A stretch of DNA of 40,338 bases from an uncultured Solibacteraceae bacterium (GTDB taxonomy: Bacteria; Acidobacteriota; Terriglobia; Bryobacterales; Bryobacteraceae): contig CAZPZE010000922.1 in the NCBI GenBank assembly GCA_964590625.1, positions 1-40,338 on the forward strand. The letters run 5' to 3'. The translations under genes were made by a program, and so were the position numbers. Under the pieces are notes generated by a model. That model was not told where the DNA came from, made no database searches, and saw nothing but the letters and a program-made list of their open reading frames with translations. Position 1 is the stretch's first letter. Every line of letters begins with the position of its first letter. Shown here piece after piece: positions 19,856-40,338 of the stretch.

Positions 19856-20518
19856 TCAGGCAACGACGGAGATGTTGTCGACGACGTCGGTCACGCCAGG
19901 AGCGGCCCAGGCGGCGCGCTCGGCTTCGCGGCGCTCAAACCAGGAACGAACGCTGCCAGACAGAAACACTTTTCCATCCACGGCGGAAACGTTGATGCGG
20001 CGGGCGTCGAGCTCAGCGTTGCGGCGCAGCGCATCTTCGATTCTTCCGGAAACAACGCCAGCCGTCACATGCGGCTTCACCTGGATGCTGTTGATGACGC
20101 CGCGGACACCTTCCACAGTGCGGGCGCAGGATTCGGCGGCCTCCTTCTGATAATTCCACTCGACCGAACCGGTCAAAGTGACGAAGCCGTGGGAGACGAC
20201 GGCCTTGATCTTCTCATCCGGCACCATGACGTTGATCTTCATGGAATGAAGCACGTCGCGCGCGATATCGGGATCGACGCGCTTGTTATCCGGCTGGACT
20301 TCGATGTCATTCGTGATGGCTTCGACGCCATACACCGACTGGGCGGCCTTCTCCGCCGCGTATTTTTCGGCAAACGTGGGGACATAGCCAGTGAGCATCA
20401 CGATCTTGCCGGACACGGAGACCATAATGTTCCTCGATGTAATTCGGGGATCCCATTCGATCTGGCGAATCACGTCGTCGCGCAGGCGCTCGGCTTTTTC
20501 TTTCTGATTGGTCTGCAT
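19856..20518 (-). CDS. BON-domain protein (three BON repeats, OsmY-like, no signal peptide seen)
   Basis: 220 aa from the ATG at 20518, preceded by AGGAGAGG. BON-like units repeat three times: VSGKIVMLTGYV...GVEAITNDIEV, HGFVTLTGSV...GVRGVINSIQV and DGKVFLSGSV...GVTDVVDNISV. Confidence 0.85.
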   Translation of the reverse strand: MQTNQKEKAERLRDDVIRQIEWDPRITSRNIMVSVSGKIVMLTGYVPTFAEKYAAEKAAQSVYGVEAITNDIEVQPDNKRVDPDIARDVLHSMKINVMVPDEKIKAVVSHGFVTLTGSVEWNYQKEAAESCARTVEGVRGVINSIQVKPHVTAGVVSGRIEDALRRNAELDARRINVSAVDGKVFLSGSVRSWFERREAERAAWAAPGVTDVVDNISVVA

Positions 20519-20569
20519 AAATTCCTCTCCTTGCCGACACAGCCGTTCGGCAACTGACACGAGCGAAAT

Positions 20570-20586
20570 CTGCGAATGACCGGCCA
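20570..20586 (-). promoter_or_regulatory. Candidate -24/-12 promoter for the BON gene
   Basis: The minus strand reads TGGCCGGTCATTCGCAG (GG-N10-GC; the -12 element is TCGCA). It lies 53 nt upstream of the ATG at 20518. Confidence 0.35.
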
Positions 20587-20645
20587 ATCCGGGGACCTTC
20601 GTAAGTTCCTGCTATCGTTTGGTCTGCGCGGAAACGACGGGCATC

Positions 20646-20671
20646 GCGCTGCGCGATATCACCCATCCTGC
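20646..20671 (+). promoter_or_regulatory. Conserved intergenic element (copy 1), candidate enhancer/operator
   Basis: GCGCTGCGCGATATCACCCATCCTGC matches 37972-37997 at 23 of 26 positions. It sits between divergent BON and USP genes. The core TGCGCGATATCACCCA is an imperfect palindrome centred on GATATC. Confidence 0.55.
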
Positions 20672-20745
20672 GGGCACGGTCATCAATTTCACGCACGAAG
20701 CGGCGCATGAGTTCGTAATTTCCGAGCAAAATCAAGGTGTTTGCC

Positions 20746-20762
20746 TGGCTCCCGGGATGCAC
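20746..20762 (+). promoter_or_regulatory. Candidate -24/-12 promoter for the USP gene at 20773
   Basis: TGGCTCCCGGGATGCAC fits TGGC-N8-TGC. The -12 C lies 12 nt before the ATG, which implies an almost leaderless transcript. Confidence 0.4.
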
Positions 20763-20772
20763 TCCACAGGGC

Positions 20773-21606
20773 ATGCCACAGATCAAACGAATTCTCTTCC
20801 CAGTCGATTTCTCGCCTGCCTGCTCCGGAGCGGCCCGCTATGCGGAGGCTCTCGCCGGCCGGTTTCAGGCGGACATCACCGTGCTGCACGTGGTGGGAGA
20901 CGGTGAGCATAATCTGGCGGAGACCCTGATTCCGCAGCGGAAGGAGAAGCTGAATCAGTTCGCCGCGGGCGACCTGAGATACTTCAGCACGCGCGTGGAA
21001 TGCCAGACCGCGAACGATCCGGCGGCCGCGATCGTAAGCGAGGCGAAGCGATCGGATGCGGACCTGATCATGATCCCGTCGCACGGTCTGGGAGCTTTTC
21101 GACGGCTGCTCCTCGGGTCCGTGACAGCCAGAGTGCTTCACGATGCGGAATGCCCTGTGTGGACTTCCGTGCATGCGGAAACGGCGCCGACGCTCGAGAA
21201 TGTGCACTGCCGGAAAGTTCTGGTGGCGGTGGATCTGAGTCCGCGGAGCCGGCGCATTGTGGAGTGGGCGGCGTGGATCGCGAAAGAATACGACGCAGAA
21301 CTCGGGATCGTTCACGCGGCTGCGCCGTGGCCTCCGGCGTATTACAGCGGCGAAGCGGTGTTCACGGAAGCCATCATGAACGAAGGGACGAACCTGGTGA
21401 ACGCGCTGAAGACCGACATCGGCCTGGAGGCAGAGGTGTTCACCGGCGCAGGCGAGCCCGCGCAGATCGTGGCCGGCGCGGCCGCGGAATTCGGGGCTGA
21501 TCTGCTGGTGATCGGACGGCACTCCGGCAGTGAAACGTCCCATTATCTGGGGCAGCATGCGTACTCGATCATCCGAAGTTCGCCATGTCCCGTCATCAGC
21601 ATTTAG
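20773..21606 (+). CDS. Universal stress protein, tandem USP domains
   Basis: 277 aa from the ATG at 20773 (MPQIKRILFPVDFS). Second domain KVLVAVDLS. The GxxG...S nucleotide-binding-like tail VIGRHSGS is present. Confidence 0.85.
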   Translation: MPQIKRILFPVDFSPACSGAARYAEALAGRFQADITVLHVVGDGEHNLAETLIPQRKEKLNQFAAGDLRYFSTRVECQTANDPAAAIVSEAKRSDADLIMIPSHGLGAFRRLLLGSVTARVLHDAECPVWTSVHAETAPTLENVHCRKVLVAVDLSPRSRRIVEWAAWIAKEYDAELGIVHAAAPWPPAYYSGEAVFTEAIMNEGTNLVNALKTDIGLEAEVFTGAGEPAQIVAGAAAEFGADLLVIGRHSGSETSHYLGQHAYSIIRSSPCPVISI

Positions 21607-22433
21607 CGCTGCTGATGCTGGCGGTGTCGCACACGGCGCTGTGCCAGGAGATCGAGGCGCAGGATATCGTCCGGCGTTCGATGGCGCTGCTGCGCGAGGC
21701 GTGGGATGCAGCGCCACACTATGCGTTCGTACAGCGCGATGAAACGCAGAGCGGCGGCAGGACGGTGAGCCGGACCCATCAGGTGGTGATGATTGACGGA
21801 TCAGACTACTATCTGCCGATCGCGAATAACGATGAACCGCTCGGCGCAGCGGAACGCGCGCGCGAATTGCAGAAGCTGAAAAATGAGAAGGCGCGGCGCG
21901 ATCGGGAAAGCGCAAAGGAGCGGGAAAAGAGAGCCGCGAACTACCTGCAGCAGCGGCGGCAGAACGGCATGTTCATCACGGAACTGCCGGAAGCGTTCCA
22001 CTTCACGCTGATACGGGAAGCGACGTTGCCGGACGGACACGAAGTATGGGTTTTGGCAGCGGCGCCAAAGCAGCGGCAGGGGCCGTTGAGCCGCGAAGCG
22101 AAGGTGCTCTCCGGCATGAGGGGTTATCTGTGGGTGGAGAAGGAAAGCTACAGAGTAGTGCGGGCGGAAGCGAGCGTCACTGAGCCGGTTTCGATCTTCG
22201 GGATTTTCGCGCGCGTGCTGCCCGGCACGCGGCTGGAGCTTGCGACCGAGCCGGTGTCCGGCGCTCCGCCGATGCTGAGCCGCATGGCAGTAAATCTGGT
22301 GATTTCCCGGTTGTGGTTTCGTTCCACACAGCAGAAGATCACAACATTCTCCTCATGGCGTCCGAATGAAGAAGTGATGAACGAGCTGACCGGAAACGCG
22401 TCAGCAGCAGAAGCTCAGGACGGGGCAAGATGA
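21585..22433 (+). CDS. Hypothetical exported protein (possibly LolA-like/outer-membrane lipoprotein-sorting fold; weak)
   Basis: 282-aa ORF with short signal-like HLALLMLAVSHTALCQE and coding-like composition. It overlaps the USP gene by 22 nt. An alternative start at 21615 is possible. Confidence 0.6.
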   Translation: MSRHQHLALLMLAVSHTALCQEIEAQDIVRRSMALLREAWDAAPHYAFVQRDETQSGGRTVSRTHQVVMIDGSDYYLPIANNDEPLGAAERARELQKLKNEKARRDRESAKEREKRAANYLQQRRQNGMFITELPEAFHFTLIREATLPDGHEVWVLAAAPKQRQGPLSREAKVLSGMRGYLWVEKESYRVVRAEASVTEPVSIFGIFARVLPGTRLELATEPVSGAPPMLSRMAVNLVISRLWFRSTQQKITTFSSWRPNEEVMNELTGNASAAEAQDGAR

Positions 22434-23255
22434 GGCGCGGATAATGGCGTGCGCGTTGGTACGGAAGAGGCCGAAGCGCTCGCTGATGTGTCCGCGGCCG
22501 ATGACCACGAGATCGGCGTTCAACTGGTGCGTGGATGTGGCGAGTCCCTGCGTCAGGCCGTTTTCATAGATATCGATCGGATAATTAGTGCCGGAACGCT
22601 GCTGCAGTCTGGCAATCGCTTCGCGGCTCGACTGCAGCAGGAAATGCCGGAAGTCGATTTCGCTGAAACCTTCGGTGCTGAGAGGCGCGGCGTTGATGGC
22701 ATGAAACAAATGGAGGCGCGCGGAAAAGAACACAGCCAGCTCGTGCGCTCGCCGAATGAGCTCTTCGTTTTGCGGCGTCACATCAATGGCGCACAGAATG
22801 GCGCGAATCGCGGGAGGAATTCTTCCGTGCGGTTTTTCGACGTGTGCCGAGGTCCACACGGGGCAGCGCAGGTCATGGAGGACTTTCGACGTGACGGAAC
22901 CGATGAGAAAGCGCCGAAAGGCGCCGAAGCCGCGCGTCGGCATCATAACGAGATCGACGGAATGCTTTTCGACGAACTGCGCGATGTTGCCGGCGGGATC
23001 ACCGTCCACGACGACGGTCTGGACGTCGAGAGAACTGTCCATGGAAGCGGAAAACGCGTGAAGACGGCTGCTCGCGTCCTGTCTGTGCTCGGGTGTAGGA
23101 GGCAGGTTGCCGAGCAGTTCCACTCCGGCGGGCGGGGTGAGCGCGTGCAGCAGCGTCAGTTTGGCGCCACATGCGCGCGTCATAAACTCCACGTCATGAC
23201 GCATCGCCTGGCATTGATCAGAAAAATCGACCGGGAACAGAATATTCCGGAACAT
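22401..23255 (-). CDS. Universal stress protein, tandem USP domains
   Basis: 284 aa from the ATG at 23255 (MFRNILFPVDFS), preceded by AGGAGG. Second domain AILCAIDVT. Confidence 0.85.
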   Translation of the reverse strand: MFRNILFPVDFSDQCQAMRHDVEFMTRACGAKLTLLHALTPPAGVELLGNLPPTPEHRQDASSRLHAFSASMDSSLDVQTVVVDGDPAGNIAQFVEKHSVDLVMMPTRGFGAFRRFLIGSVTSKVLHDLRCPVWTSAHVEKPHGRIPPAIRAILCAIDVTPQNEELIRRAHELAVFFSARLHLFHAINAAPLSTEGFSEIDFRHFLLQSSREAIARLQQRSGTNYPIDIYENGLTQGLATSTHQLNADLVVIGRGHISERFGLFRTNAHAIIRASSCPVLSFCC

Positions 23256-23662
23256 CGTCACGAATCTTCCTCCTTGAAAGCAGCAGGGCACGGGTCGAAC
23301 ACTCACGACTCCCGCACCCGCTAAAAAGAACTCTTCAGGACCCGCGACAGGCACACATGCCGCTGTCCGGCAAGCCGCCGGAGCGAAAACTCCAGAACTC
23401 TGTTCACCGCAAATTGGCGGCCCTGCGTCGCGGAACCGCTCATTCCTCCGGGCGGCGCAGGGCTATCGCGAATTATGGTTGCCAAGTCGCATGTGCCGTA
23501 CCACAACGAGGGGATGAAAATACAGGGCTTGCCGTTCGACACACAGACCCAATGAGTGGGTTCGCCCATGAGGTTGCGTGTTCACACCCAGCTGAGCGCC
23601 AGGAGTGGCAAGGCGGATTTGCGGCAGGTTCCCGGCTGCAAAAGTGCAGATCTGAATGGCGA

Positions 23663-26149
23663 ATGGCTGAGATAAACGGCGAAAAACGTCCGGTACGGGC
23701 GGGGCTGACCAGTGCGGCCGCCGAAGCGGCGTTCGCCGAATACGGACCCAATCTGCCGGTTGCGCAAAAGAATCATGCGGCCGTACTCACGTTTTTCGGC
23801 GCGCTGCTCAATCCGCTGGCGGTTATTCTTCTCGTCGCGGCGGGGATCGACGGTTTTCTCGGGCAGGTAACGGATGCGCGAATCATTGTTGCGGTAGTGC
23901 TGACCGGTGGGCTGATCAATTTTCTGCAGACCTTCCGCTCGCAGGCCGCGGTGGACCGGCTGCGCAGCCGTGTGCTGCCGACCGCGACCGTATTCCGCGA
24001 CGGAGCCTGGACGGAAGTACCGCAGCGGAACATCGTACCGGGCGATCTGATCTGGCTCTCGGCGGGAGATCTGGTGCCGGCCGATTCGATGCTGCTGGAA
24101 ACGAAGGATCTGCATCTGCAGCAATCCGCGCTGACCGGCGAGTCGTTTCCGGTGGAGAAGCGCGCCGCGGCCGGCGAGGAGCAACCGGTGAGCGAACCGG
24201 ATTCGCCCTATATGGTTTTTCTGGGGACGAATGTTGTGAGCGGGACGGCGCAGGCGCTGGTGGCCATGACGGGAACGCGAACCGTTTTCGGGAGCATCGC
24301 GGAACGTCTCGCGGTGCGGCCGCAGGAAACCGAATTCGAACGGGGCTTGCGGCGATTCGGCGGATTCATCATGCAGGCGGTCTTGTTTTTGCTTTCGCTG
24401 CTGCTGGTGATCAGCATCGCGCTGCGGCACGACGCATTTCAGTCGCTGTTGTTCGCTGTCGCGCTTTCTGTCGGGATGACGCCGGAGTTTCTGCCGATGA
24501 TCACATCCGTGACGCTGGCGAAGGGGGCGATGGAGATGGCGCGGCGGAAGGTGATCGTCAAGCACCTGGCGTCGATTCAGAATCTCGGCAGCATCGATGT
24601 TCTCTGCAGCGACAAGACAGGGACGCTGACGGCGGGCGAGATGAAGGTGGAGATGGCGATTCGTCCGGATGGATCGCCTTCGCCCGAGGTGCTGACGCTG
24701 GCCTGGCTGAACAGCCGGTTCGAGACCGGCATACGCAGCCCGCTCGATCACGCCATTCTGAAGATGGATTGCCGGCATCCGGAGACGATCCGCAAGCTGG
24801 ATGAGATTCCATTCGATTTCGAGAGACGCCGCGTGTCGGTCGTGATGGAAAACGGGGCGGAGCGAACTCTGATTTCCAAAGGCTCGCCCGAAGGGATTGT
24901 CTCGATCTGCAGCAGCTATGAAAGCGGCGGCGCGGCGGCTGAGCTGGATGAGCCGGCGCGGGCCGCCTGCCTGAAGCGATTTGAGGAGCTGAGCCGCAGC
25001 GGCTTCCGGATGCTCGCCGTGGCCTCGAAGCGAGTGGGGCCTGCGCAAGCCTACACGATTGCCGACGAGACCGGCCTTTGCCTCGCGGGTTTCATCGCAT
25101 TCTCCGATCCTCCGCTGGAGGATGCGGCTGAGATGCTGAGGTCTCTGCGCGCCGACGGTGTGGCGATGAAGATCATCACCGGCGATAACGAACTGGTTAC
25201 GCGGCACGTGTGCGACCGCGTCGGTATGAACGTGACGTCGATTGTGTGCGGAAGCGATATCGACATGATGACCGACCCGGCGCTCGAGCATGCGGCGGAA
25301 AACTCCGACGTCTTTGCGCGCGTATCGCCGATGCAGAAGAACAGGATCATTCTCGCGCTGAAGCGCCGGGGCCACGTAGTGGGCTACATGGGGGACGGGA
25401 TCAACGATGCTCCGTCACTGCGCGCGGCGGATGTGGGGATCTCGGTGGCGACGGCGGTGGATGTGGCGCGCGAGGCGGCGGACATGATCCTTGTGGAGCG
25501 GGGCCTCGAGGTGCTGCACGACGGGATTCTGGAAGGACGGAAGGCGTTCGGAAACGTGATGAAGTACATCCAGATGGGGACCAGTTCCAATCTGGGGAAC
25601 GTGATCAGCATGGCGGCGGCGTCGTTTTTCCTGCCGTTTTTGCCGATGCTGCCGACGCAGATTCTGCTGAACAACTTTCTCTACGACATTTCTCAGATCA
25701 CGATTCCGACTGACAAAGTGGACGAAGAGTATATTCGCTCGCCGCAACGCTGGGACATCGGCGCGATCCGAAGATTCGCGTTCACGATTGCGCCAATCAG
25801 CTCGCTGTACGATTTCGTGACGTTCTATGTGCTGCTGCGATTGTTTCATGCGCATGAAGCGCTGTTCCATACGGGATGGTTTGTGGAATCGCTGGCGACG
25901 CAGACACTGGTGCTGCTGGTGATTCGGACGCAAGCGAAGCCGTGGCGCAACTGGCCGAGCGCGCCACTGGCAGCCACGATTGCGGCGGCGGTTGCGGCTG
26001 CGCTGGTGTTGCCATTTTCGCCGTTCGCGGACGCACTCGGATTTACCGCGCTGCCGCCCGCATTCTTCCCGTTTCTGATTTTTGTGCTTGCGACTTATCT
26101 ACTACTGGTGGAAGTGATCAAGCGGCGGGTGATGGTCAGGACTGCTTAG
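23663..26149 (+). CDS. mgtA: Magnesium-translocating P-type ATPase
   Basis: 828 aa from the ATG at 23663 (MAEING). P-type motifs TGES, CSDKTGTLT, TGDN, GDGINDAP. MgtA-type blocks MTPEFLPMITSVTLAKG and NNFLYDISQITIPTDKVDEEYIRSPQRW. The ORF is open upstream to 23357, but the homology begins near 23663. Confidence 0.9.
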   Translation: MAEINGEKRPVRAGLTSAAAEAAFAEYGPNLPVAQKNHAAVLTFFGALLNPLAVILLVAAGIDGFLGQVTDARIIVAVVLTGGLINFLQTFRSQAAVDRLRSRVLPTATVFRDGAWTEVPQRNIVPGDLIWLSAGDLVPADSMLLETKDLHLQQSALTGESFPVEKRAAAGEEQPVSEPDSPYMVFLGTNVVSGTAQALVAMTGTRTVFGSIAERLAVRPQETEFERGLRRFGGFIMQAVLFLLSLLLVISIALRHDAFQSLLFAVALSVGMTPEFLPMITSVTLAKGAMEMARRKVIVKHLASIQNLGSIDVLCSDKTGTLTAGEMKVEMAIRPDGSPSPEVLTLAWLNSRFETGIRSPLDHAILKMDCRHPETIRKLDEIPFDFERRRVSVVMENGAERTLISKGSPEGIVSICSSYESGGAAAELDEPARAACLKRFEELSRSGFRMLAVASKRVGPAQAYTIADETGLCLAGFIAFSDPPLEDAAEMLRSLRADGVAMKIITGDNELVTRHVCDRVGMNVTSIVCGSDIDMMTDPALEHAAENSDVFARVSPMQKNRIILALKRRGHVVGYMGDGINDAPSLRAADVGISVATAVDVAREAADMILVERGLEVLHDGILEGRKAFGNVMKYIQMGTSSNLGNVISMAAASFFLPFLPMLPTQILLNNFLYDISQITIPTDKVDEEYIRSPQRWDIGAIRRFAFTIAPISSLYDFVTFYVLLRLFHAHEALFHTGWFVESLATQTLVLLVIRTQAKPWRNWPSAPLAATIAAAVAAALVLPFSPFADALGFTALPPAFFPFLIFVLATYLLLVEVIKRRVMVRTA

Positions 26150-26895
26150 ACCGGGAGAATTTGATTCTGGGTGAGCATAGCAAGCTCGCGCTCAGCCTGG
26201 CGGGGATGCGCGATCGCTTCATCGCGAGTGATCTGGCCGTCGCGGAAATAGATATTGCGCCCGCAGAAGGCCGCGATATCGGGCTCGTGCGTCACCATCA
26301 CGATCGTGATTCCCTGCTCGCGATTGAGACGCTGGAGGATCGCCATGATCTCGACGCTGGTGCGCGAATCGAGCGCGCCGGTGGGCTCGTCTGCAAGGAC
26401 GATCTGCGGATTGTTGACGAGCGCGCGGGCGATGGCGACGCGCTGCTGCTGGCCGCCGGAAAGCTGGTTCGGATGATGATCGGCGCGGTCCGCCAGTCCG
26501 ACGGCGGCGAGCGCCTTCAGGGCACGGGCGCGTGAATCCGGCACGGGCTGGTCGGCGTACAGGAGCGGCAGTTCCACGTTTTCAATCGCGCTGGTCCGCG
26601 CGAGCAGATTGAATTGCTGGAAGACAAAGCCGATGCTTCGATTGCGGATGGAGGCAAGCTGGTCGCGATCATAGCTTTCGATTTCGACGCCGTCAAGACG
26701 ATAAGTGCCGGAGGTTGCGCGGTCGAGGCAACCGAGAATGTTCATCAGCGTGGATTTGCCGGATCCGGACGGACCCATGACGGCGACGAACTCGCCGCGT
26801 TCGATCGTGAGAGAAACATCGCGCAGGGCGACGAGTGGAAGGCCGCCCAGTTCGAACACGCGGGTGAGGTGAGCGACTTCGATCAGGCTACTCAT
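26146..26895 (-). CDS. ABC transporter ATP-binding protein (MacB/LolD-type)
   Basis: Walker A GPSGSGKST, signature LSGGQQQRVAIARAL, Walker B ILADEPTGALD. It overlaps the upstream permease gene by 8 nt. Confidence 0.9.
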   Translation of the reverse strand: MSSLIEVAHLTRVFELGGLPLVALRDVSLTIERGEFVAVMGPSGSGKSTLMNILGCLDRATSGTYRLDGVEIESYDRDQLASIRNRSIGFVFQQFNLLARTSAIENVELPLLYADQPVPDSRARALKALAAVGLADRADHHPNQLSGGQQQRVAIARALVNNPQIVLADEPTGALDSRTSVEIMAILQRLNREQGITIVMVTHEPDIAAFCGRNIYFRDGQITRDEAIAHPRQAERELAMLTQNQILPV

Positions 26896-28126: not shown

Positions 28127-28133
28127 GTGAGCC

Positions 28134-29630: not shown

Positions 29631-29679
29631 CGCCTCGGAATCTTCCGAGCGTCCCGCGCGTCAACGAGTTGTCCCGCGA

Positions 29680-31168: not shown

Positions 31169-31241
31169 TTTTACCAATTAAGGAGAGCATAGTGAGCCAT
31201 TTGGCGCAGCTGACGCAGCTCAGCAGCCGGGAGTGCGTCTC

Positions 31242-32459: not shown

Positions 32460-35126
32460 GGGTTCGAGCGTCAGCTTCGCTTCGACAATTCCGCCGCCGC
32501 CGAATTCTATCGTAAAGCCCAGTTTGCGGCAGAGGCCGATCATGGCAGCGTTGCTCTCGCGGATATCCGCCGTGATCAGCGATAGATTTTCATCGCGTGC
32601 AATGCCAATCAGCCGCCGCGCTATTTCCATGCCGAGTCCGCGGCGCTGCAGGCGGTCTTCGATGAGCACGCCCAGTTCGGCGGCGCGTTCGAAGTGCGCG
32701 CGGCTGAGCCGCCCGACGCCCAGGATTTCGCCCTGCTGCTCTGCGACCAGAGCAATCTCACGGTCGTAATCCGCAAAGCACACGCGGAGAAGACGCTCGT
32801 GCGAGCGGCGCGTTTCGAGAGAGATGGGCCCGAGATAGCGCTGCGAGACCGATTGTTCGGAGAGCCGGGTGTGGAAGCGCGCGATGGCGGGCTCATCTTC
32901 CGGCCGGATGGGCCGAATGATGATTTGACCGCCGCCGGGAAATTCCCACGGCTTCACGTATTGCGACGGATAGGGCCGGATCGCGGGGCGAGGAAGCGCC
33001 GCGGCGTCCGCCGCATGAAGGATGACGCGCGCATCGAGAGCCAGAATGCCGGAAGGCGATGCCAGCAGCGGATTGATATCGATTTCTTTGATGGCGGGGT
33101 TTTCGAGAACGAGATCGCTGAAGCGGACCAGGATGTTTTCGAGGGCCGCGAGATCCACGCTGCGGCGTCCGCGAACGCCGCCCAGCGCGGTGAAGATTTT
33201 CGTGCGCCGCATGAGCGAAGCGGCGAGTGTGGTGTTGAGAGGCGGCAGCCCGATCGCGCGATCCCGGTAGACTTCGACGAGCTGTCCGCCGCTGCCGAAC
33301 AGAATGATGGGGCCGAACTGCGGATCCATGCTGGCGCCGAGGATCAGTTCGTAGCCGTCGCGGGGCGCCATCTGCTGGACGGTGACTCCCTGGAAGTGCT
33401 GCGCGCCGGCTTTTTCGGTAACGGACTGGCGGATGGTCTGAAATGCCCGGATCACTTCATCGCGGCTGCCGATGTTGAGCTGAACGCCGCCGACGTCCGT
33501 CTTGTGAGTAACGGTTTCGGAATGCAGTTTGACGGCGACGGGGAACGTCATCTGTTCCGCGATGGCGGCGGCTTCCGCTTCGGTGCGCGCGATCGCGGTG
33601 CGGACGCAGGGAATTCCCCACGCTTCGAGCAACTGTTTGGATTCGGCTTCGGTGAGCAGAAGCCGGCCGGACGCACGAATCCTGCCGAGCTGCGATGCGG
33701 TTCCGGCGCGGGCGCTCTCACTCGATGCGGGCGCGGGCTTCTCCGGCGTCTGGTAGAGCGATTCGATTCCCACGCTGTAATTCCACGTGAGATCGAAGAT
33801 GCGCGCGGCGGAATCCGGATAGCTGTAAGTCGGAATCCTGGCTTCGTTGAGGATAGCTTCGCCGCGCATCGCCTGTTCGCCGCCCATCCAGCTCGCGAAG
33901 ACCGGCTTGCCGATGGCGCGAAGCGTGGGCGCGAGGACTTCAGCAACGGTCACCGGATTTGTAGGACCCGTAGGGGCCAGCGCCACCAGAATGCCATCCG
34001 TGCCGGCGTCGCGGGCGACGATATCGAGGACCTTGCAGAAGCGCTCCGGCGTGGCATCGCCGAGAATATCGACGGGATTGGCGTGACTCCAGTGGGGCGG
34101 AAGAATTTCGTTGAGGCGCGCGAGGGCGGCAGGAGAGAGTTCGGCCAGCTGACCGCCGCCGGCGAGCAGGGCATCGGCCGCGAGGACGGCGGGGCCTCCC
34201 GCATTCGTGACGATGGCGAGGCGGGGGCCTTTCGGACGAGGCTGTTTGTCGAGCGCTTCGGAAAGATTGAAGAGCTCGGCGATGGTATCGACGCGCACCA
34301 CACCGCATCGGCGGAACGCGGCATCCAGCACGTCATCGCTGCCAGTCAGGGCACCGGTGTGCGAGGCCGCGGCCTTCGCAGCGGCTTCACTGCGTCCGGG
34401 TTTCAGTACAATGATCGGCTTCGATAATGCGACTTCGCGGGCGGCGGACATGAAAGACCGCGCGTCGCCGACCGATTCCATATAGATCGCAATGCTGCGG
34501 GTTTTTGGATCGTCTTCGAGATAGCGGATGAGATCGCCCCAGCCGACATCGGCCATCGAACCGACGGAGACGAAAGCGCTGAAGCCCATATGTTCGCGAT
34601 GGCTCCAGTCCAGAATCGCGGTGCAGAGAGCGCCGCTCTGGCTGATGAACGCGAGATTTCCGGGCCGTGCCATAGAGTTGGCGAAGGTCGCGTTGAGTCC
34701 GTGATGCGGACTCATGAGACCGAGGCAGTTCGGGCCGATGATGCGCATACCGCCGGCGCGCGCTTCACGGATGATGCGGTCTTCGAGCGCGCATCCCGCA
34801 GGGCCGGTCTCGCGGAAGCCGGCGGATATCACGATGGCCGCCTTCACACCGGCGGATGCGCAATCCGCAATCACTGCCGGAACGGTTTCGGCGGGCGTGG
34901 CGATTACCGCCATCTCCACGCCTGTGCCGATGGCGCTGACGGATGGATAGCACCGCAAGCCGCGAAGCGTCTCATGCTTCGGATTGACGGGATAAACGGG
35001 CCCACCGAAGGATGTCTGGGTCAGGTTGTCCAGAATCGAGCGGCCGACGGCGCCAGGCTTTTCGGTAGCTCCGACCAGCGCCACGTTGCGCGGGCGGAAA
35101 AAACAATCCAGCGGAGTGTGGCTCAT
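32439..35126 (-). CDS. pat: Pat/YfiQ-type protein lysine acetyltransferase (ADP-forming acyl-CoA synthetase-like domains plus C-terminal GNAT)
   Basis: 895 aa. N-terminal CoA-binding [17 protein letters not shown], succinyl-CoA-synthetase-like and ATP-grasp regions, and a C-terminal GNAT domain ([16 protein letters not shown]...[12 protein letters not shown]). Confidence 0.85.
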
Positions 35127-35132
35127 TTGAGT

Positions 35133-35966
35133 TCAGATGCTGAGAACGGCGCAGGGAGCTTCGCGGACGATTTCGTAAAGCGACGACCAGATTCGCGCGA
35201 GGTTCTCCTGCGCGAGGCCCCGCCCGGTCACGACAAGATCCGCATTGCGGCTGGTGGCTTCCTCGCGAATCGTGCTGGCGATCATTCCGCCCGCGACGCG
35301 GTGAGGCGCATCGATTCCGAGCTTGCCTTTCAGCTCGCGCATGCGGGCGTTCTCGGAAGCGACAATCTCTCGCTCATACACCGCGTAATCGAATTCCATG
35401 GATGCGGGCGGGAGCGCGACGACATGGACAATTGCGAGACTCGCGTCGTATTCTTCGGCCAGCCAGGAGGCTGCGCGGAGAACGCCCTCGGCTTCGGCGG
35501 TTTCATCGAGCGCGCAAAGAATGGATTTATAGGGCGGGGCCTTGCGGATAGCGTCCGGACCGGCAGTCCAGACGGCCGCGCTGGAATCGTGCAGGACTTT
35601 CGCCGTGACCGATCCAAGGAGCAGGCGGCGGAGCGGGCCCCAGCCGTGGGTTGGAAGCATCACAAGGTCCGAGCCCTGCTGCACGATTGTCCTCGTGATC
35701 ACCGATCCTGGTTCACCGGGCGCCGCGCAGCATTCCACGTGCTGTACCGGGAGAACTTTCGATGCCCACGCGCGCAGCCGATGGTTTTCGAAGACCCGAA
35801 GCTCATCGACGTCTGTGAACGTGGAGTGCGCCGCCTTTTCATCCCAGGCGTGGACGAGGCTGAGCTCGCACGACAGGCGCGCGGTCATTTCCTTCACCCA
35901 GGGAAGGATCGACTCGCAGGCGGGTGAGTAATCGGTGGGGAAAAGGATTCGTCGGAACGGGATCAT
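35133..35966 (-). CDS. Universal stress protein, tandem USP domains
   Basis: 277 aa, MIPFRRILFPTDYS, second domain SILCALDET. It ends 6 nt before the Pat start, so probably the same operon. Confidence 0.85.
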   Translation of the reverse strand: MIPFRRILFPTDYSPACESILPWVKEMTARLSCELSLVHAWDEKAAHSTFTDVDELRVFENHRLRAWASKVLPVQHVECCAAPGEPGSVITRTIVQQGSDLVMLPTHGWGPLRRLLLGSVTAKVLHDSSAAVWTAGPDAIRKAPPYKSILCALDETAEAEGVLRAASWLAEEYDASLAIVHVVALPPASMEFDYAVYEREIVASENARMRELKGKLGIDAPHRVAGGMIASTIREEATSRNADLVVTGRGLAQENLARIWSSLYEIVREAPCAVLSI

Positions 35967-36083
35967 GCCCGTGAGAGGGCAAGCTCCGGGCCGCGCGAGC
36001 GAAGCGATATGTTGCTTATTTTCAGAAGGACGCGCTGACGATCTGAGACGCGCCCAGCGGGGCTGCGCGCAACCTGCGGGATT

Positions 36084-37853
36084 TCACGCAACTGGTCTGG
36101 CCGTTCCGGCTTTTGCGCTGAAAGGAGTCAGATCGTAACGCGCCTGGATCTCGCGCACGATCGATTCGAGGGCGTCGCGGGACAACGTCTCGCGATAACG
36201 GTCTTCGATGCGGCCGACCTCCGCGCCCAACTGATAATCGCCGAACACGCCGACGATCCAGTGCGAGAAATCGTTGCGGCGGAGGTGCCCGTCGAAATGC
36301 CGGGCGGGCTCGTGATCCAGAATCTCCGCCATCTCACCGAGGGTGCGAGCGCGCTGGCCGGTCTGGCCGGATTCATTCCAGAAGATGAAAGCGCGGCTGT
36401 CTTCGATGGGGATATCCACGTACTTCGCGAGATGACGGACGTGCGGGGTCAGCCGCGGGGCGAGATGAATTCGCCGGATGCCGCCCCGCGCCTCTTCAGT
36501 GACGGGGAGCGCGGCCGCCTCGCCGATCACGAGGTCACGGAACAGATTGACCCACTCGGCTTCCGTTCGAGCCGTGGTGGGACAGAGAGACCTGAGGGTC
36601 TGGACTTCCGCGGGATCCGATTCACGCGTTGCGAGAACCACCTGACTGGCTTTCAGCGACTCCGGACAGAGAGCGGACGCGCGATACGTGACAAACGTGT
36701 AACCGCTGAGCTCGAGATCGAGCAGGCCGCGCGATTCGGCGTCCTGCAGGAAGTAGTGGGCTTCATCGAGAACGATGCGATGCGGAAGGCCTGTACGGCG
36801 GCGCAGCATGGCAAGAGCCGGCAGAACGCTGCGAACGTATTCGAGCTTCTGCGGATACTCCGTGTGGGAGAGATCGATCACAACGCTGACATCGGAGTGC
36901 CGCAGCGCGCGCACCAGATCCCGCGGACGCGGCAGCGGATCTCTGCCCCCCATCACGGTGACGCCTGGAAGGACTTCGAGCGACGTGTAGTCCCCTTCGG
37001 GGTCGAGAACGCACACCGAGTAGCCGTAAAGAATCAACTGTTCGCAAAGTAACCCCGTCACCCAGGACTTTCCGGATTTCGGCTCGCCGGCCACGAGGAC
37101 ATTTCGTCCCCGAACGGCGAGAGCGAACTGGTCGCCGGCATCCGTATGGCCGAGCAGCAGGCGGCGGCGCGCCGCGTTCGGGATCGGAAGGAAGCCGTGA
37201 CCGGCGATTTCGGTCAGGTATCTGGCGACTGCGCTGGGGCCGTCGCCCTGCAGAACATGGTCGGCGGCACGCTGCAGCACCTCGCTGCCCCAGCTGACGG
37301 CCACACCGACCTCACAGAGACGCAGCAGCTCGTGATCGTTCTCGGCGTCACCGATTCCGAGGGCATTGTGCGGAGAAAGCCGCAGGATGGTCAGCGCCTG
37401 CTCAAGGCCGGTGGCTTTGGTGACTGCCTGCGGCAGCACCATGACGCGGCCGCGATTGAACATGAGCGTGAGGGGAAGTTCGAGCCTCTGGAGCAGGCCG
37501 AGGATTCGGGGTCCTTCGATTGCGGACGCTTCGATCACGGCGCGTCCCCAGGCGTGTTCAATGCCCGCGGCGCGGAGCTCCGCCAGCAGAACCTCGGAAG
37601 GCGGCGGGGCAAGCGTCAGGGAGTAGCCGGTGTCCGGAAATTCAATGGCGGCTCCGTTTTCGGCGACTACGGCATCGAGGAAATGGAGATCGCCGATGAC
37701 GCGGCGCAGGTCCTCCAGAATGCGGCCTGTAACCAGAATGACAACAATGCCCCGGCGCCGCAGCTCGCCGATGGCGATACGAACGTCGGGATTCAGGACG
37801 TCATTCGTCGCAATGGTCCCGTCGAAATCGATAGCGAGCACCAGAAATTTCAT
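36084..37853 (-). CDS. Fusion protein: N-terminal HAD-IIB (Cof-type) phosphatase, a HerA/DUF87-like P-loop ATPase, and an uncharacterised C-terminal domain
   Basis: 589 aa from the ATG at 37853 (MKFLVLAIDFDGTI is HAD motif I). Other HAD motifs: VTGR, TKATGL, GDAENDHELL. Then Walker A VAGEPKSGKSW and Walker B RIVLDEAHYF. The C-terminal 130 aa or so (…RNDFSHWIVGVFGDYQLG…) are unassigned. Confidence 0.8.
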   Translation of the reverse strand: MKFLVLAIDFDGTIATNDVLNPDVRIAIGELRRRGIVVILVTGRILEDLRRVIGDLHFLDAVVAENGAAIEFPDTGYSLTLAPPPSEVLLAELRAAGIEHAWGRAVIEASAIEGPRILGLLQRLELPLTLMFNRGRVMVLPQAVTKATGLEQALTILRLSPHNALGIGDAENDHELLRLCEVGVAVSWGSEVLQRAADHVLQGDGPSAVARYLTEIAGHGFLPIPNAARRRLLLGHTDAGDQFALAVRGRNVLVAGEPKSGKSWVTGLLCEQLILYGYSVCVLDPEGDYTSLEVLPGVTVMGGRDPLPRPRDLVRALRHSDVSVVIDLSHTEYPQKLEYVRSVLPALAMLRRRTGLPHRIVLDEAHYFLQDAESRGLLDLELSGYTFVTYRASALCPESLKASQVVLATRESDPAEVQTLRSLCPTTARTEAEWVNLFRDLVIGEAAALPVTEEARGGIRRIHLAPRLTPHVRHLAKYVDIPIEDSRAFIFWNESGQTGQRARTLGEMAEILDHEPARHFDGHLRRNDFSHWIVGVFGDYQLGAEVGRIEDRYRETLSRDALESIVREIQARYDLTPFSAKAGTARPVA

Positions 37854-37971
37854 TGGAACTTCCTCGCCAGAGAGAAGTGCACCCCGCATTCCGGCGCTTG
37901 CGCATCCCTTATCTTTCTCCTGCCAGAAGTTAGGTTTTTGCGCTGGGTGATTTCTATCAAGGCGGCCCCCG

Positions 37972-37997
37972 GCGCTGCGCGATGTCACCCAGCCCGC
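37972..37997 (+). promoter_or_regulatory. Conserved intergenic element (copy 2), candidate enhancer/operator
   Basis: GCGCTGCGCGATGTCACCCAGCCCGC matches 20646-20671 at 23 of 26 positions. It sits between the divergent HAD-ATPase and Hsp20 genes. Its TCACCCAGC arm (37985-37993) is inverted relative to GCTGGGTGA at 37942-37950. Confidence 0.55.
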
Positions 37998-38043
37998 CCG
38001 CGGGCCATGGGCCGTTTCAGAGTACTTAGAACGTGTCTGATGC

Positions 38044-38060
38044 TGGTGAACGGAGTGCAT
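38044..38060 (+). promoter_or_regulatory. Candidate -24/-12 promoter for hsp20
   Basis: TGGTGAACGGAGTGCAT has GG-N10-GC spacing and a TGCA -12 element. It lies 36 nt upstream of the ATG at 38095. Confidence 0.35.
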
Positions 38061-38094: not shown

Positions 38095-38601
38095 ATGCCA
38101 AACGTAGAAATTCAGAAGGTGAAAGACGTCCAAAAAACCAGGCTTCCTTTTTTTGAGGAATTTGAAAAGCGCTTCAATGACATCCAGCAGCGTGCGTTCC
38201 AGCTGTTCGAGAGTGGCGGACGCAAGTTCGGCCATGAGCTCGAGGACTGGCTGACCGCAGAGCGGGAAGTCTTCGGTTCGCCGGCGGCCGAACTCGCCGA
38301 CAAAGGCGATGCCTATGAGCTGCAGATGGCTCTTCCGGGCTTTGAGCCGAAGGATGTGGAAGTGACAGCGACACCGGAGGAGATCATCATCCATGCCGCC
38401 AGCACTCAGGAGAAGAAGTCGGAGAAAAAGAACGTGCTCTGGAGTGAATTCACTTCAAGCGACCTTTATCGCCGGATTCCGGCTCCGACGCCGCTGAATA
38501 CCGACAGTGCGACGGCAACGCTCGAAAAGGGTGTGCTGCGCATTACGGCGCCGAAGGCGACGGAGTCGAAGCCGAAACCCGTGGCGATCAAAGCCGCGTA
38601 G
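38095..38601 (+). CDS. Hsp20/alpha-crystallin family small heat-shock protein
   Basis: 168 aa from the ATG at 38095, preceded by GGGAGG. Alpha-crystallin domain YELQMALPGFEPKDVEVTATPEEIIIHA...ATLEKGVLRITAPK. Confidence 0.9.
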   Translation: MPNVEIQKVKDVQKTRLPFFEEFEKRFNDIQQRAFQLFESGGRKFGHELEDWLTAEREVFGSPAAELADKGDAYELQMALPGFEPKDVEVTATPEEIIIHAASTQEKKSEKKNVLWSEFTSSDLYRRIPAPTPLNTDSATATLEKGVLRITAPKATESKPKPVAIKAA

Positions 38602-38635
38602 GAGCCAAAGCCCGGTCCCGGAGGAGGGAGGAAAA

Positions 38636-38674
38636 GGGGCTCGCCGGAATGTCCGGCCGAGCCCCTTTTTCTTT
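38636..38674 (+). terminator. Strong intrinsic terminator after hsp20
   Basis: GGGGCTCGCCGG (38636-38647), loop AATGT, then CCGG-C-CGAGCCCC (38653-38665). This gives a 12-bp stem with one bulge, followed by TTTTTCTTT. Confidence 0.8.
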
Positions 38675-38707
38675 GGATGCCGTGGCGCTGAGAGGATGCC
38701 GCGGCCC

Positions 38708-39793
38708 TCAGACCGTAGAGAGAGTCCGTTCCTCCGTCTCCGCCAGCGCCAGAGTGTGCTGCGCGGATGCGAGATCCAGAACAATGCGCCCCTGAACCGC
38801 ACCTACCTCCAGCTGATTGAAGACATCGTTAATGCTCTCGAGCGGACGCGTCTGAATATGCGCGGTGATGTTCGCATCCGCGGCTATCTCGAGCGCTTCG
38901 CGCATGTCGGCCCTCGTCCCGACGAGTGAGCCCCGAACCGTGATTCCCTTCAGGACGACGTCGAAGAGCGGCAGCGGGAATTCTCCGGGCGGGAGGCCGA
39001 CAAGGACGCACGTACCGGCGCGCCGCGTCATCCCCACCCCCTGGCGGAACGCCGGAAGCGAAGGGGCTGTGACGAGCACGCCGTGCGCGCCTCCCGTCAG
39101 CCGCAGGATTTCCGGCACAGGGTCATTGCTGGCGGAGTTCACCGTGAACTCAGCGCCGAGACGCCGCGCGAGCGCGAGTTTCTCGTCATGAACGTCGACA
39201 GCGACCACGTGCATTCCCATGGCTCTCGCGTACTGAATGGCAAGATGGCCGAGGCCGCCAACACCGACGATTGCGGCCCACTGGCCAGGACGCGCTCCGG
39301 TTTGTTTCAAACCTTTGTAGGTGGTCACACCGGCGCACAGCAGCGGCGCGGCGGTGACGGAACTCATGTTGGCGGGGATGTGCGGAGCGTAACGCGCGTC
39401 GGCCAGAAAGTATTCAGCGAATCCGCCATTCACGAAATATCCGCTGTACTGAGCGTTGGGGCAAAGGGATTCTCGCCCTGTAACGCACCATTCACATTCG
39501 CCGCAGGCGCTGTAGAGCCAGGGGATTCCGGCGCGATCGCCCGCCTGGAAAGACTTCACACCCGGGCCGGCGGCGATTACGGCGCCGACCCCTTCATGTC
39601 CGGGAACAAAGGGCAGCGTGGGCTTGATCGGCCAATCGCCATGCACGGCATGGCAATCGGTGTGGCAGACGCCGCACGCCTCGGTGCGCACGAGGATCTC
39701 ATTGGGACCGGGCGTTGGAATTGGCAATTCGGAAATTTCGAGCGGTTGCCCGAAGGCGCGGACGACCGCCGCCCGCATGGTTTTCGATGTCAT
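38708..39793 (-). CDS. Zinc-dependent alcohol dehydrogenase (AdhP/AdhA-like)
   Basis: 361 aa. Catalytic zinc motif CGVCHTDCH...GHEGVG, structural zinc motif CGECEWCVTGRESLC, Rossmann motif GVGGLGH. SD GGAGG upstream of the ATG at 39793. Confidence 0.9.
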   Translation of the reverse strand: MTSKTMRAAVVRAFGQPLEISELPIPTPGPNEILVRTEACGVCHTDCHAVHGDWPIKPTLPFVPGHEGVGAVIAAGPGVKSFQAGDRAGIPWLYSACGECEWCVTGRESLCPNAQYSGYFVNGGFAEYFLADARYAPHIPANMSSVTAAPLLCAGVTTYKGLKQTGARPGQWAAIVGVGGLGHLAIQYARAMGMHVVAVDVHDEKLALARRLGAEFTVNSASNDPVPEILRLTGGAHGVLVTAPSLPAFRQGVGMTRRAGTCVLVGLPPGEFPLPLFDVVLKGITVRGSLVGTRADMREALEIAADANITAHIQTRPLESINDVFNQLEVGAVQGRIVLDLASAQHTLALAETEERTLSTV

Positions 39794-39813
39794 GGAAACC
39801 TCCGGTGGATGTT

Positions 39814-39830
39814 ACGCATCGGCGCAGCCA
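39814..39830 (-). promoter_or_regulatory. Candidate -24/-12 promoter for the alcohol dehydrogenase gene
   Basis: The minus strand reads TGGCTGCGCCGATGCGT, which fits TGGC-N8-TGC and closely resembles the 20746 site. The -12 C is 22 nt before the ATG, leaving room for the GGAGG SD. Confidence 0.45.
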
Positions 39831-39925
39831 ATCGCGCGAACCGCCAAGTCTTTCGGAATACGGGCCTGACGGAAACAGGTAATCGCTTTGGTGAGTGAAT
39901 CAGCGCAGACTGTGTGGATTTGCCG

Positions 39926-40338
39926 CTATCTCCACGCGCGACGGCCCGCGGCGAGCGTGCGGGAGAGCTGCGCATCGTAGCCGTAGATGTCGTCAAAGAA
40001 CCGGACGACGCCGTCTTCGCCGGCGATCGCGGTGCCATAGACAATGAGCACTGGTATCCGCCGGGTGAGTGTTACCTGCACGGTTGCCGGGTCTTCGATG
40101 GCGGCGCGGATGCGTTCGGGAGTCCAGCCGGGCGTGCCAGCCAGAGCCCACTGAGCCAGGCGTTCCGGATCTTCCACGCGGATGCAGCCATGGCTGAAAT
40201 CGCGGCGCGTTTTGGAGAACAGCTCCGTGGCCGGAGTGCCGTGCATATAGACGTCATAGCGGTTCGGAAAGACGAATTTGATCGCCCCGAGCGCGTTATC
40301 CGGGCCTGGCCTCTGGCGAATACGCGTGCCGCCATCGG
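39926..40338 (-). CDS. L,D-transpeptidase (YkuD domain), 5' end outside the window
   Basis: The frame stays open to the window edge. It encodes ...RQRPGPDNALGAIKFVFPNRYDVYMHGTP...FSHGCIRV, which contains the catalytic His/Cys motif. Confidence 0.85.
   Translation of the reverse strand, partial: DGGTRIRQRPGPDNALGAIKFVFPNRYDVYMHGTPATELFSKTRRDFSHGCIRVEDPERLAQWALAGTPGWTPERIRAAIEDPATVQVTLTRRIPVLIVYGTAIAGEDGVVRFFDDIYGYDAQLSRTLAAGRRAWR

Follow-up and report, generated by a model that had tools for sequence, protein, structure and literature searches.

The second half of a 40,338-nt contig from an uncultured Solibacteraceae bacterium (CAZPZE010000922.1; the whole stretch is referred to here as the window) carries a run of stress genes in which a gene for an NtrC-family response regulator is embedded. 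Our analysis points, with a probability of about 0.7, to the part from 19.9 to 40.3 kb (the island; genes called by Pfam and NCBIfam) being a single regulon, read from sigma-54 promoters and governed by the embedded activator through a 16-bp dyad. A first-pass annotation had listed as island genes a BON protein, three tandem universal stress proteins (USPs), MgtA, Hsp20, a Zn alcohol dehydrogenase (ADH), a Pat acetyltransferase, a HAD-ATPase fusion, a YkuD L,D-transpeptidase and a MacAB-like pump, and had described the regulator as NtrC-family, paired with a PAS kinase and not LuxR-type; the domain searches agree with both descriptions, and the resemblance it had drawn to the DosR regulon holds at the level of gene families. 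Its central proposal, control of the stress genes by this activator, gains from conserved promoter cores, dyads, gene linkage and the lack of rival motifs, while the binding of the activator to the dyads is a step that we infer.

Ten -24/-12 sites and one further candidate were located in the island (Table 1). All five GG-N10-GC sites claimed previously (regulator, USP1, BON, hsp20 and adh) are present where they had been placed, and those ahead of USP2, mgtA, USP3-Pat, HAD-ATPase, more weakly the pump operon and possibly the kinase gene are additional. The accompanying claim, that the stricter TGGC-N8-TGC pattern occurs three times in places where well under one occurrence is expected by chance, did not survive: the window holds 13 such matches against 7.8 expected, and only two of them (USP1 and adh), not three, lie upstream of island genes in the right orientation. 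When each spacer was subjected to dinucleotide shuffling, only the regulator, BON and USP3 sites singly beat the shuffled sequences; the regulator site is the top sigma-54 match of the whole window, and the BON site has CGC in place of TGC. Fisher's combined P over the sites is 5e-4, and the window alone thus provides only moderate support. An E. coli-type sigma-54 matrix by itself discriminates poorly, with 100 matches of at least 6 bits in the window that fall mostly in coding sequence. The pattern GG-N9-TGC was found no more than 80 nt from the start for 8 of the 11 island units, against 2 of the 18 other gene starts in the window. No sigma-70-like promoter was detected in any island spacer by a scan that may miss some, the acidobacterial consensus being poorly defined.

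Comparison with related loci lifts the predicted sites well above chance. The loci nearest to the window come from Bryobacteraceae or Terriglobia metagenome-assembled genomes (MAGs), and the window MgtA is 100% identical to an 828-aa protein (P0121) of an NCBI Bryobacteraceae MAG. Relatives for footprinting (last rows of Table 1) were taken through the HAD-ATPase and MgtA proteins because loci found through the regulator lacked the island; those reached through the regulator at 50-70% identity (L001-L003 and L081-L087), which retain the kinase-regulator pair, were left out. In whole-spacer MAFFT alignments (A1, A3, A4, A6 and A7) pairing the window with L163, L164 and L170 (81-89% protein identity), the core GG and TGC positions were identical in 50/50 comparisons, against 81/120 (67.5%) for the other bases of the same 17-mers (P 1.6e-7) and 662/1189 (56%) for the remaining alignment (P 5e-13). 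At USP1, for instance, L170 reads CTGGTCGTTGGGATGCA, with unchanged cores and altered bases between them, and it likewise keeps the GG and GC cores at BON (A7) and has TTGGCCCGGCGAATGCA at the position aligned with the USP2 site (A6). The regulator site is identical to that of L163 at 16 of 17 bases; the pump site retains 15 of 17 in the same relative, inside a poorly conserved stretch (A4). Over five sequences the GG and GCTTGC of the USP3-Pat site are invariant and the flanks variable (A3). At adh the cores are kept in L161 and L162 and both substitutions fall at -16/-15 (A2), these relatives being too close to inform.

The same arrangement recurs in relatives whose spacers are no longer alignable. 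Equivalents of the HAD-ATPase site were recognised in L167 (GTGGTCCCGTGAATGCA) and L168 (TCGGTGCTCGACTTGCA) as well as in the still alignable L164 (GCGGAACATCTAATGCA), and sites 32-41 nt before the hsp20 start in L167 (CTGGCATGCCGCGTGCT, 12.8 bits), L168 (GTGGCGATGCAATTGCA, 10.5 bits) and again L164 (CTGGTTAATCGAATGCA). The REC-REC-enhancer-binding protein operon of L168 (REC, receiver domain) scores 12.0 bits, the osmC-enhancer-binding protein operon of L167 10.5, the unk225-USP genes of L165 10.5, and the MacAB-HAD-ATPase operon of L172, which bears GCGGCACGCGACATGCT together with a dyad, 10.3. The phosphoketolase gene of L171 (10310-12721) has a site of 11.1 bits, and ytxH and glycogen phosphorylase genes in distant relatives are also preceded by sites of 10-13 bits; polysaccharide and housekeeping genes of the same loci score below 4.5. 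A canonical sigma-54 site, CTGGCACGGCAATTGCA, was found in L001 (18.2 bits).

Within the USP2/mgtA spacer, the stretch 23290-23420 is about 80% conserved in L170, though L170 has no USP2, and the minus-strand sigma-54 site is likewise retained there. Two hairpins, CCGGCAAGCCGCCGG and GGAGCGAAAACTCC, lie side by side in the stretch, which had no Rfam match; a search of the minus strand in the USP2 leader gave no convincing conserved small open reading frame. The stretch may encode a small RNA or act as a regulatory leader.

The predicted promoters are accompanied by a 16-bp dyad with consensus TGCGYG-W4-CRCGCA, whose half-sites drift towards TGGGTG. It was traced from an 18-mer common to the BON/USP1 and HAD-ATPase/Hsp20 spacers and then by k-mer counts over the spacers of six lineages; the 18-mer itself, GCTGCGCGATRTCACCCA, was discarded as a general motif, being absent from 160 loci and general only once recast as the degenerate dyad. 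With a model built on the distant relatives only, 12 matches of at least 9 bits were obtained in the window. All 12 are intergenic, although only 8.8% of the window is (P 2e-13), and island spacers hold 10. The S1 dyad between BON and USP1 reaches 20.6 bits by this model. In the relatives, 9.5 kb of spacer yielded 25 matches and 68 kb of coding sequence only 9, and the half-sites are 86% conserved against a background of 56% (P 9e-11). The S1 and S2 blocks are kept in L170 between diverged flanks (A7), as are both dyads of the USP2/mgtA spacer, TGAGTGGGTTCGCCCA and TGCGTGTTCACACCCA (A6), and the dyad common to the pump and regulator promoters reads TGCGTGCTTTAGCGCA in L163, with unchanged half-sites around an altered spacer (A4). 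Divergent promoter pairs share the dyads lying between them. Enhancers of NtrC-family proteins are expected roughly 50-150 bp upstream; at all ten promoters the dyad centres lie 31-94 bp before the -24 GG, the distance being 31 bp at the regulator's own promoter and 52-94 bp at the other nine.

Elsewhere in the window, a perfect palindrome, TGCGCGCAAACGCGCA, at 476-491 fits the dyad model, and a sigma-54-like site, TTGGCTATCGAAGTGCC (659-675), stands 42 nt before a hexapeptide transferase/asparagine synthase/AMP-ligase cluster, so the regulon may reach outside the island. The 8-mer GCTGCGCG occurs 16 times in the whole window against 7.2 expected, with 14 copies on the plus strand and half in spacers, an excess that the dyad explains only partly.

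The embedded regulator has the receiver domain, AAA+ domain and Fis-type helix-turn-helix (HTH) that characterise NtrC-family enhancer-binding proteins (Pfam Response_reg, Sigma54_activat with E 1e-65, AAA_lid_14 and HTH_8). Its translation contains the phospho-acceptor Asp in DD...LTDLVMP, a Walker A motif GQTGTGK, FLDEIGD and the loop GSFTGA, which reads GAFTGA in two orthologs. None of the NCBIfam equivalog cut-offs was reached, so that the protein is not NtrC, AtoC, ZraR or PrsR itself. The recognition helix of the HTH is nearly invariant among orthologs, in parallel with the shared dyad. Given this conserved HTH and the standard enhancer-dependent layout, the embedded activator is the obvious candidate for binding the dyad, as it presumably does, and its own gene is probably autoregulated.

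The neighbouring histidine kinase presumably partners the regulator. It has 408 aa and a single PAS domain, whereas the kinases of relatives have about 530 aa and two. Among solved structures, the PAS domain is matched best by the haem domains of FixL and DosP (E 3e-12), and a His in the column of FixL H200 is retained by kinases from related loci (L002, L003, L081, L082, L167 and both kinases of L170, of which L170_HK2 is 62% identical to the window kinase). The window kinase departs from the FixL-type haem-PAS sensors in that its proximal His column is gapped; it also differs from FixL in having an NtrC-type partner instead of a FixJ-type one.

In six lineages, activator orthologs adjoin genes for Hsp20, USP, HAD-ATPase, a P-type ATPase and MacAB. 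With their identities to the window protein (89% in L163, 77% in L167 and L170, 69% in L001 and 67% in L168) and an almost invariant recognition helix, this indicates that the association of the activator lineage with the stress genes recurs across lineages. The positions of the regulator and kinase genes have been reshuffled between close relatives (window 29.6-32.5 kb; L163 5708-7284; L170 4014-7421 and 16438-18039): L170 has only a kinase at the position of the window's regulator-kinase pair and carries a regulator-kinase-REC operon beside cytochrome bd and NnrS genes. Membership of the regulon also varies, with osmC, ytxH, phosphoketolase and a sortase operon appearing among relatives. An unk225-USP-ABC operon of L165 (440-3417) lies by phosphoribosyltransferase and nitroreductase genes, a DosR-like set, and an hsp20-P-type ATPase operon of L168 (6734-9721 and 16912-21096) is found beside a [NiFe] hydrogenase.

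Taken as a circuit, the island would comprise about ten units (BON, USP1-unk282, USP2, mgtA, probably the pump, the regulator and probably the kinase, USP3-pat, HAD-ATPase, hsp20 and adh), each read from a sigma-54 promoter with a -24 GG and a -12 TGC and with one or two dyads upstream. The cytoplasmic PAS kinase would sense a signal, most likely oxygen, redox or energy limitation, and phosphorylate the receiver domain of the activator, which would then assemble on the dyads through its Fis-type HTH, use ATP to open sigma-54 closed complexes and switch on its own gene as well. The source genome presumably encodes rpoN, to which the intact activator, the canonical site of L001 and the wide spread of sigma-54 in diderm bacteria (below) point indirectly.

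Several observations weigh against this reading. The sigma-54 matrix is only an approximation of the published consensus, and the hsp20 (P 0.43), adh (0.20), HAD-ATPase (0.24) and very weak pump sites are unremarkable within the window. The USP2 site implies a leader of 236 nt, and at other units the implied leaders of 1-5 nt are unusual for sigma-54 and could mean that starts were mis-assigned or that the motif has another function. The dyads of distant relatives were first found by a model that included five window sites, so discovery and testing were not fully independent. Orthologous activators at 66-70% identity (L001-L003 and L081-L087) mostly lack the surrounding island, and L163 has a regulator without an adjacent kinase. 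Finally, the window kinase lacks the N-terminal PAS domain and, through a deletion of 3-4 residues, the FixL-type proximal His.

The most sceptical explanation, that the GG-N10-GC matches and dyads reflect chance and the composition of GC-rich spacers while the genes are read from housekeeping or extracytoplasmic function sigma promoters, draws on the many matrix matches in coding sequence, the strict-pattern counts (13 against 7.8), the several island sites that singly fail the shuffle tests and the poorly defined acidobacterial sigma-70 consensus. We regard it as very improbable, as the cores are conserved at 50/50 positions while the bases between them vary, 12/12 dyad matches are intergenic, dyads and promoters keep a consistent geometry, sites recur before orthologous genes in unalignable spacers, and the short-range pattern marks 8/11 island units against 2/18 other starts. 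If the promoters are real, the dyad might still be bound by another protein, whether an enhancer-binding protein or a repressor, with the embedded regulator controlling itself or a subset of the units. NtrC-family paralogs are many in Acidobacteria (among the at least 600 matches listed, relatives of about 40% identity come from many phyla), and the regulator's own dyad is unusually near at 31 bp. We consider this unlikely in view of the activator orthologs co-located with dyad-bearing promoters in L163, L167, L168, L170 and L001, the near-invariant recognition helix alongside a conserved dyad, and the presence of a dyad ahead of the regulator operon itself in four lineages.

A closer contender accepts sigma-54/dyad control and departs from the favoured model in the signal. 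Instead of oxygen limitation or dormancy, this would be general starvation or entry into stationary phase, stress on the envelope or from osmolarity, or cation limitation; the likeness to DosR and lxa (below) would then reflect a generic stress toolkit only. The single-PAS window kinase without the FixL-type proximal His fits this view, as do the envelope-acting products BON/OsmY, MgtA, the MacAB pump and YkuD, the differing regulon membership between relatives, and the survey of Francke et al., who tie sigma-54 chiefly to the cell exterior (PMC3162934). Pulling the other way are the FixL-like His retained in the kinases of relatives, the cytochrome bd/NnrS and hydrogenase genes next to the cluster in L170 and L168, respectively, and the low-oxygen induction of the same families in Acidobacterium capsulatum, Burkholderia and mycobacteria. 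In A. capsulatum at 0.1 uM O2, the increase is 84-fold for a histidine kinase (ACP_1638, log2 fold-change 6.4), as much as 56-fold among usp genes (ACP_1576, uspA-1, log2 fold-change 5.8) and 15-fold for adhP; glycogen genes rise as well, and no regulator has been assigned to this nanomolar-oxygen response (PMC11636273). On the strength of the gene context in relatives and the A. capsulatum and Burkholderia lxa literature we prefer oxygen limitation, at roughly even odds as the signal of the favoured model, and view a non-oxygen signal as possible and the less probable option; a role of the cluster in low oxygen or dormancy is, by analogy, presumed.

The DosR regulon of M. tuberculosis contains multiple tandem USPs, the alpha-crystallin HspX, the P-type ATPase CtpF and HAD-type phosphatases; DosR is a NarL/LuxR-type regulator that works with the GAF-haem kinases DosS and DosT and a 20-bp box at sigma-70-type promoters. 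Its gene families overlap with those of the island, both systems embed a two-component system, and the nitroreductase and phosphoribosyltransferase genes of L165 extend the likeness. Identity with the DosR regulon was rejected: neither a NarL/LuxR-type DosR regulator nor GAF-haem kinases are found in the window, whose only two-component pair is of NtrC type with a PAS kinase, and the core of the DosR box, GGGACTnnAGTCCC, gave two 3-mismatch matches in the window, both coding, against 2.4 expected. Actinobacteria are without sigma-54 altogether, and sigma-54 is almost universal in lipopolysaccharide-bearing diderm bacteria (PMC3162934).

The lxa locus of Burkholderia cenocepacia resembles the island even more closely than the DosR regulon does. 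It encodes six USPs, an alpha-crystallin small heat-shock protein (sHsp), phospholipid-binding BON proteins, a Zn alcohol dehydrogenase and a cation-transporting ATPase, in addition to two-component systems and transport proteins of the ABC and outer-membrane kinds, which are nearly the same families as in the island; one upstream motif is spread over many of its spacers, and the locus is required for anoxic persistence (PMC3721108). The lxa motif is, however, an Anr/FNR-like TGA-N6-TCA served by CRP-family regulators at ordinary promoters (PMC3721108), in contrast to the sigma-54 sites and dyad of the island. FNR-type control was set aside, as the window contains no CRP-family gene and no real FNR box: one 1-mismatch match (37947-37960; 0.72 expected) overlaps a dyad, and L164 does not conserve its ATCAA half.

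In mechanism, the nearest precedent is the NmpRSTU system of Myxococcus xanthus, whose autoregulated NtrC-like, sigma-54-dependent response regulator governs a hypoxia-induced regulon with a USP and a P-type ATPase, families also present in the island (PMC11841059). The paired dyads bound by NmpR have GCGCA/TGCGC-type half-sites, precede -24/-12 promoters and show a preferred gap of 14-15 nt between S1 and S2 (PMC11841059); the gap in the BON/USP1 spacer is 14 nt. The two systems differ in input, which in Myxococcus is a phosphorelay from the globin-coupled kinase NmpU to the hybrid kinase NmpS and in the island a single PAS kinase; in binding site, the half-sites of GCGCA-N5-TGCGC facing the opposite way and being spaced differently from those of TGCGYG-N4-CRCGCA; and in gene content, the NmpR regulon centring on oxygen use (cbb3 oxidase, hemN, hemerythrin and a CBS protein) and the island on an sHsp, BON, ADH, Pat and the HAD-ATPase (PMC11841059). 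Our literature search for sigma-54 combined with USP or Acidobacteria, or for Solibacter with sigma-54, found no paper, and the novelty of the island is tempered by NmpRSTU, an NtrC-like, sigma-54-dependent low-oxygen regulon with a USP and a P-type ATPase that was already known (PMC11841059).

The placement of several sites relative to the genes raises a further possibility. Five units, namely USP1 (12 nt to its ATG), USP3, mgtA, the regulator and the kinase, have only 12-16 nt between the -12 C and the start codon and lack a Shine-Dalgarno sequence; the leaders would thus be about 1-5 nt long if the sites are real. The remaining units have spacings of 22-53 nt and clear Shine-Dalgarno sequences throughout (for BON, AAGGAGAGG ahead of the ATG at 20518). 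Comparable short spacings were seen in relatives: 12 nt at the USP genes of L163 and L164, 14 nt at USP1 and mgtA of L170, 15 nt at the L163 regulator and L165 unk225, 11 nt at L167 osmC and 13 nt at the L172 pump operon. We therefore suggest, tentatively and with more doubt than confidence, that sigma-54 promoters in this group may be positioned to yield leaderless or near-leaderless mRNAs.

The window has a G+C content of about 60%, and its first 19.8 kb hold an unrelated biosynthetic cluster with PEP-CTERM and VWA genes, which makes a boundary at about 19.86 kb reasonable; nothing in the region points to a mobile island. The start codons are predictions, backed by homolog lengths for mgtA and the HAD-ATPase; as P0121 is 100% identical over 828 aa, 23663 is taken as the true mgtA start. 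Rfam and tRNA scans of the window returned nothing, so no known Mg2+ riboswitch precedes mgtA. A 10-bp inverted repeat, GCCGCTGCGC...GCGCAGCGGC, at 19785-19850 between the convergent PEP-CTERM/VWA and BON genes, and a strong hairpin with a T-run behind it, located between hsp20 and adh (about 38636-38676), are probably terminators at unit ends.

Among the individual genes, unk282 had no match in the Pfam and NCBIfam scans, and its pairing with USP1 is also seen in L170. The Pat-type acetyltransferase consists of an acyl-CoA-synthetase-like region fused to a GNAT domain, and its operon with USP3 (gap 6 nt) is kept in L161, L163, L164 and L170. Since a mycobacterial Pat-type acetyltransferase reportedly acetylates a USP, USP3 may by analogy be a substrate or partner of the island enzyme. 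The HAD-ATPase fusion belongs to a large, uncharacterised, mainly acidobacterial family (4825 homologs at E<1e-30); in a sequence search of solved structures, its N-terminal 215 aa matched HAD-IIB proteins and its C-terminal 370 aa had no match. In loci L161-L172 it nearly always stands beside Hsp20(DUF2934), USP, MacAB or YkuD genes and, as the most constant companion of the regulon, it is a candidate for functional study. YkuD adjoins the cluster in L164 and L172.

Table 1 Genes, candidate promoters and dyads of the window, and related loci (promoter scores in bits of the sigma-54 matrix; P, dinucleotide shuffles of the spacer)
Feature	Position	Strand	Evidence or remark
BON protein gene, three BON domains, OsmY-like	19856-20518	-	Pfam BON, 3 stretches, E 5e-52
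BON candidate promoter TTGGCCGGTCATTCGCA	20571-20587	-	10.6 bits, P 0.027; 53 nt to start codon
Dyads S1 TGCGCGATATCACCCA and S2 TCATCAATTTCACGCA	20650-20695 (S1 20650-20665, S2 20680-20695)		14 nt apart, between divergent BON/USP1 promoters
USP1-unk282 candidate promoter CTGGCTCCCGGGATGCA	20745-20761	+	9.0 bits, P 0.074
USP1, tandem USP	20773-21606	+	Pfam Usp, 2 stretches
unk282, secreted protein overlapping USP1	21585-22433	+	Operon with USP1, 20773-22433
USP2, tandem USP	22401-23252	-	Translation; NCBIfam USP matches in both halves
USP2-facing candidate promoter GTGGTACGGCACATGCG	23488-23504	-	10.0 bits
Dyad pair TGAGTGGGTTCGCCCA and TGCGTGTTCACACCCA	23553-23590		Between USP2 and MgtA promoters; neither used in training
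mgtA candidate promoter CCGGCTGCAAAAGTGCA	23632-23648	+	L170 equivalent CCGGATGCAAACGTGCA; 15 nt to ATG 23663
MgtA, Mg2+-type P-type ATPase	23663-26149	+	TIGR01524, 876 bits (cut-off 611)
MacAB-like pump operon	26146-29591	-	Pfam HlyD_D23, MacB_PCD/FtsX, ABC_tran
Pump ABC ATPase	26146-26895	-	
Pump MacB permease	26888-28126	-	
Pump membrane fusion protein	28134-29591	-	
Pump weak candidate promoter GCGGTGCCTCAACTGCA	29617-29633	-	Low E. coli-type matrix score
Dyad TGCGCGTTTTGACGCA (29694-29709) and overlapping CTGCGCG direct repeat	29680-29709		Common to pump and regulator promoters; 18.6-19.1 bits
Regulator predicted promoter GCGGCACGCGACTTGCA	29730-29746	+	13.0 bits, P 0.0025; 16 nt to ATG
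NtrC-family regulator (REC, AAA+ sigma-54 interaction domain, HTH_8)	29762-31168	+	Pfam
Two dyad-like sites ahead of kinase	31162-31177, 31193-31208		13.6 and 17.1 bits, relatives-only model
Kinase candidate -24/-12 site TTGGCGCAGCTGACGCA	31201-31217	+	7.4 bits, P 0.08
Cytoplasmic PAS-HisKA-HATPase histidine kinase	31233-32459	+	Pfam
USP3-Pat operon	32439-35966	-	Pfam
Pat-type acetyltransferase	32439-35126	-	
USP3, tandem USP	35133-35966	-	
USP3-Pat predicted promoter GCGGCCCGGAGCTTGCC	35978-35994	-	P 0.046; 12 nt to ATG
Dyad TGCGGGATTTCACGCA upstream of USP3	36075-36090		19.1-21.7 bits; invariant block in A3
HAD (Cof-type, HAD-IIB phosphatase)-DUF87/HerA-like ATPase fusion, 589 aa	36084-37853	-	Pfam
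HAD-ATPase candidate promoter CCGGAATGCGGGGTGCA	37878-37894	-	P 0.24
Dyads TGGGTGATTTCTATCA and TGCGCGATGTCACCCA	37944-37991		Between HAD-ATPase and Hsp20 promoters; partly conserved in L164 (A1)
hsp20 candidate promoter CTGGTGAACGGAGTGCA	38043-38059	+	5.4 bits, P 0.43; weak alone
Small heat-shock protein, DUF2934 and Hsp20	38095-38601	+	Pfam
AdhP-type Zn alcohol dehydrogenase	38708-39793	-	NF006940, 349 bits (cut-off 344)
adh candidate promoter TTGGCTGCGCCGATGCG	39815-39831	-	5.4 bits, P 0.20; weak alone
Dyad TGAGTGAATCAGCGCA upstream of adh	39892-39907		9.7-15.1 bits; centre 70 bp from -24 GG
YkuD L,D-transpeptidase gene, 3' part	39926-40338	-	Pfam YkuD; promoter outside window
Short-spaced stretches, -12 C to start (USP1, USP3, mgtA, regulator, kinase)	20760-20773, 35966-35979, 23647-23663, 29745-29762, 31216-31233		
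Related loci L161, L162			HAD-ATPase 96% identity; ADH, Hsp20, HAD-ATPase, USP, Pat
Related locus L163			HAD-ATPase 86% identity; HAD-ATPase, USP, Pat, regulator, pump; no kinase
Related locus L164			HAD-ATPase 81% identity; glycogen phosphorylase, YkuD, Hsp20, HAD-ATPase, USP, Pat
Related locus L170			MgtA 84% identity; cytochrome bd and NnrS; USP; regulator-kinase-REC; USP1-unk-MgtA; pump; second kinase; Pat-USP-HAD-ATPase
Related loci L165, L167, L168, L171, L172			HAD-ATPase 65-77% identity; spacers no longer alignable

Few groups of soil bacteria are as abundant as the Acidobacteria, and their persistence during anoxia or starvation is poorly understood. The circuit proposed here is concrete, consisting of one activator, one 16-bp site and about ten promoters, and appears conserved across Bryobacteraceae-like lineages. 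Should the short leaders be real, Acidobacteria would link enhancer-dependent transcription directly with leaderless translation, and the same regulon would also be the control circuit behind the A. capsulatum response to nanoxia, with its 84-fold, 56-fold and 15-fold increases in histidine kinase, usp and adhP. On the proposed model, the recurrent persistence toolkit of USPs, sHsp, BON, Zn-ADH and cation ATPase stands under at least three unrelated controls: DosR in Actinobacteria, Anr/FNR in Burkholderia and a sigma-54 enhancer system in the island.

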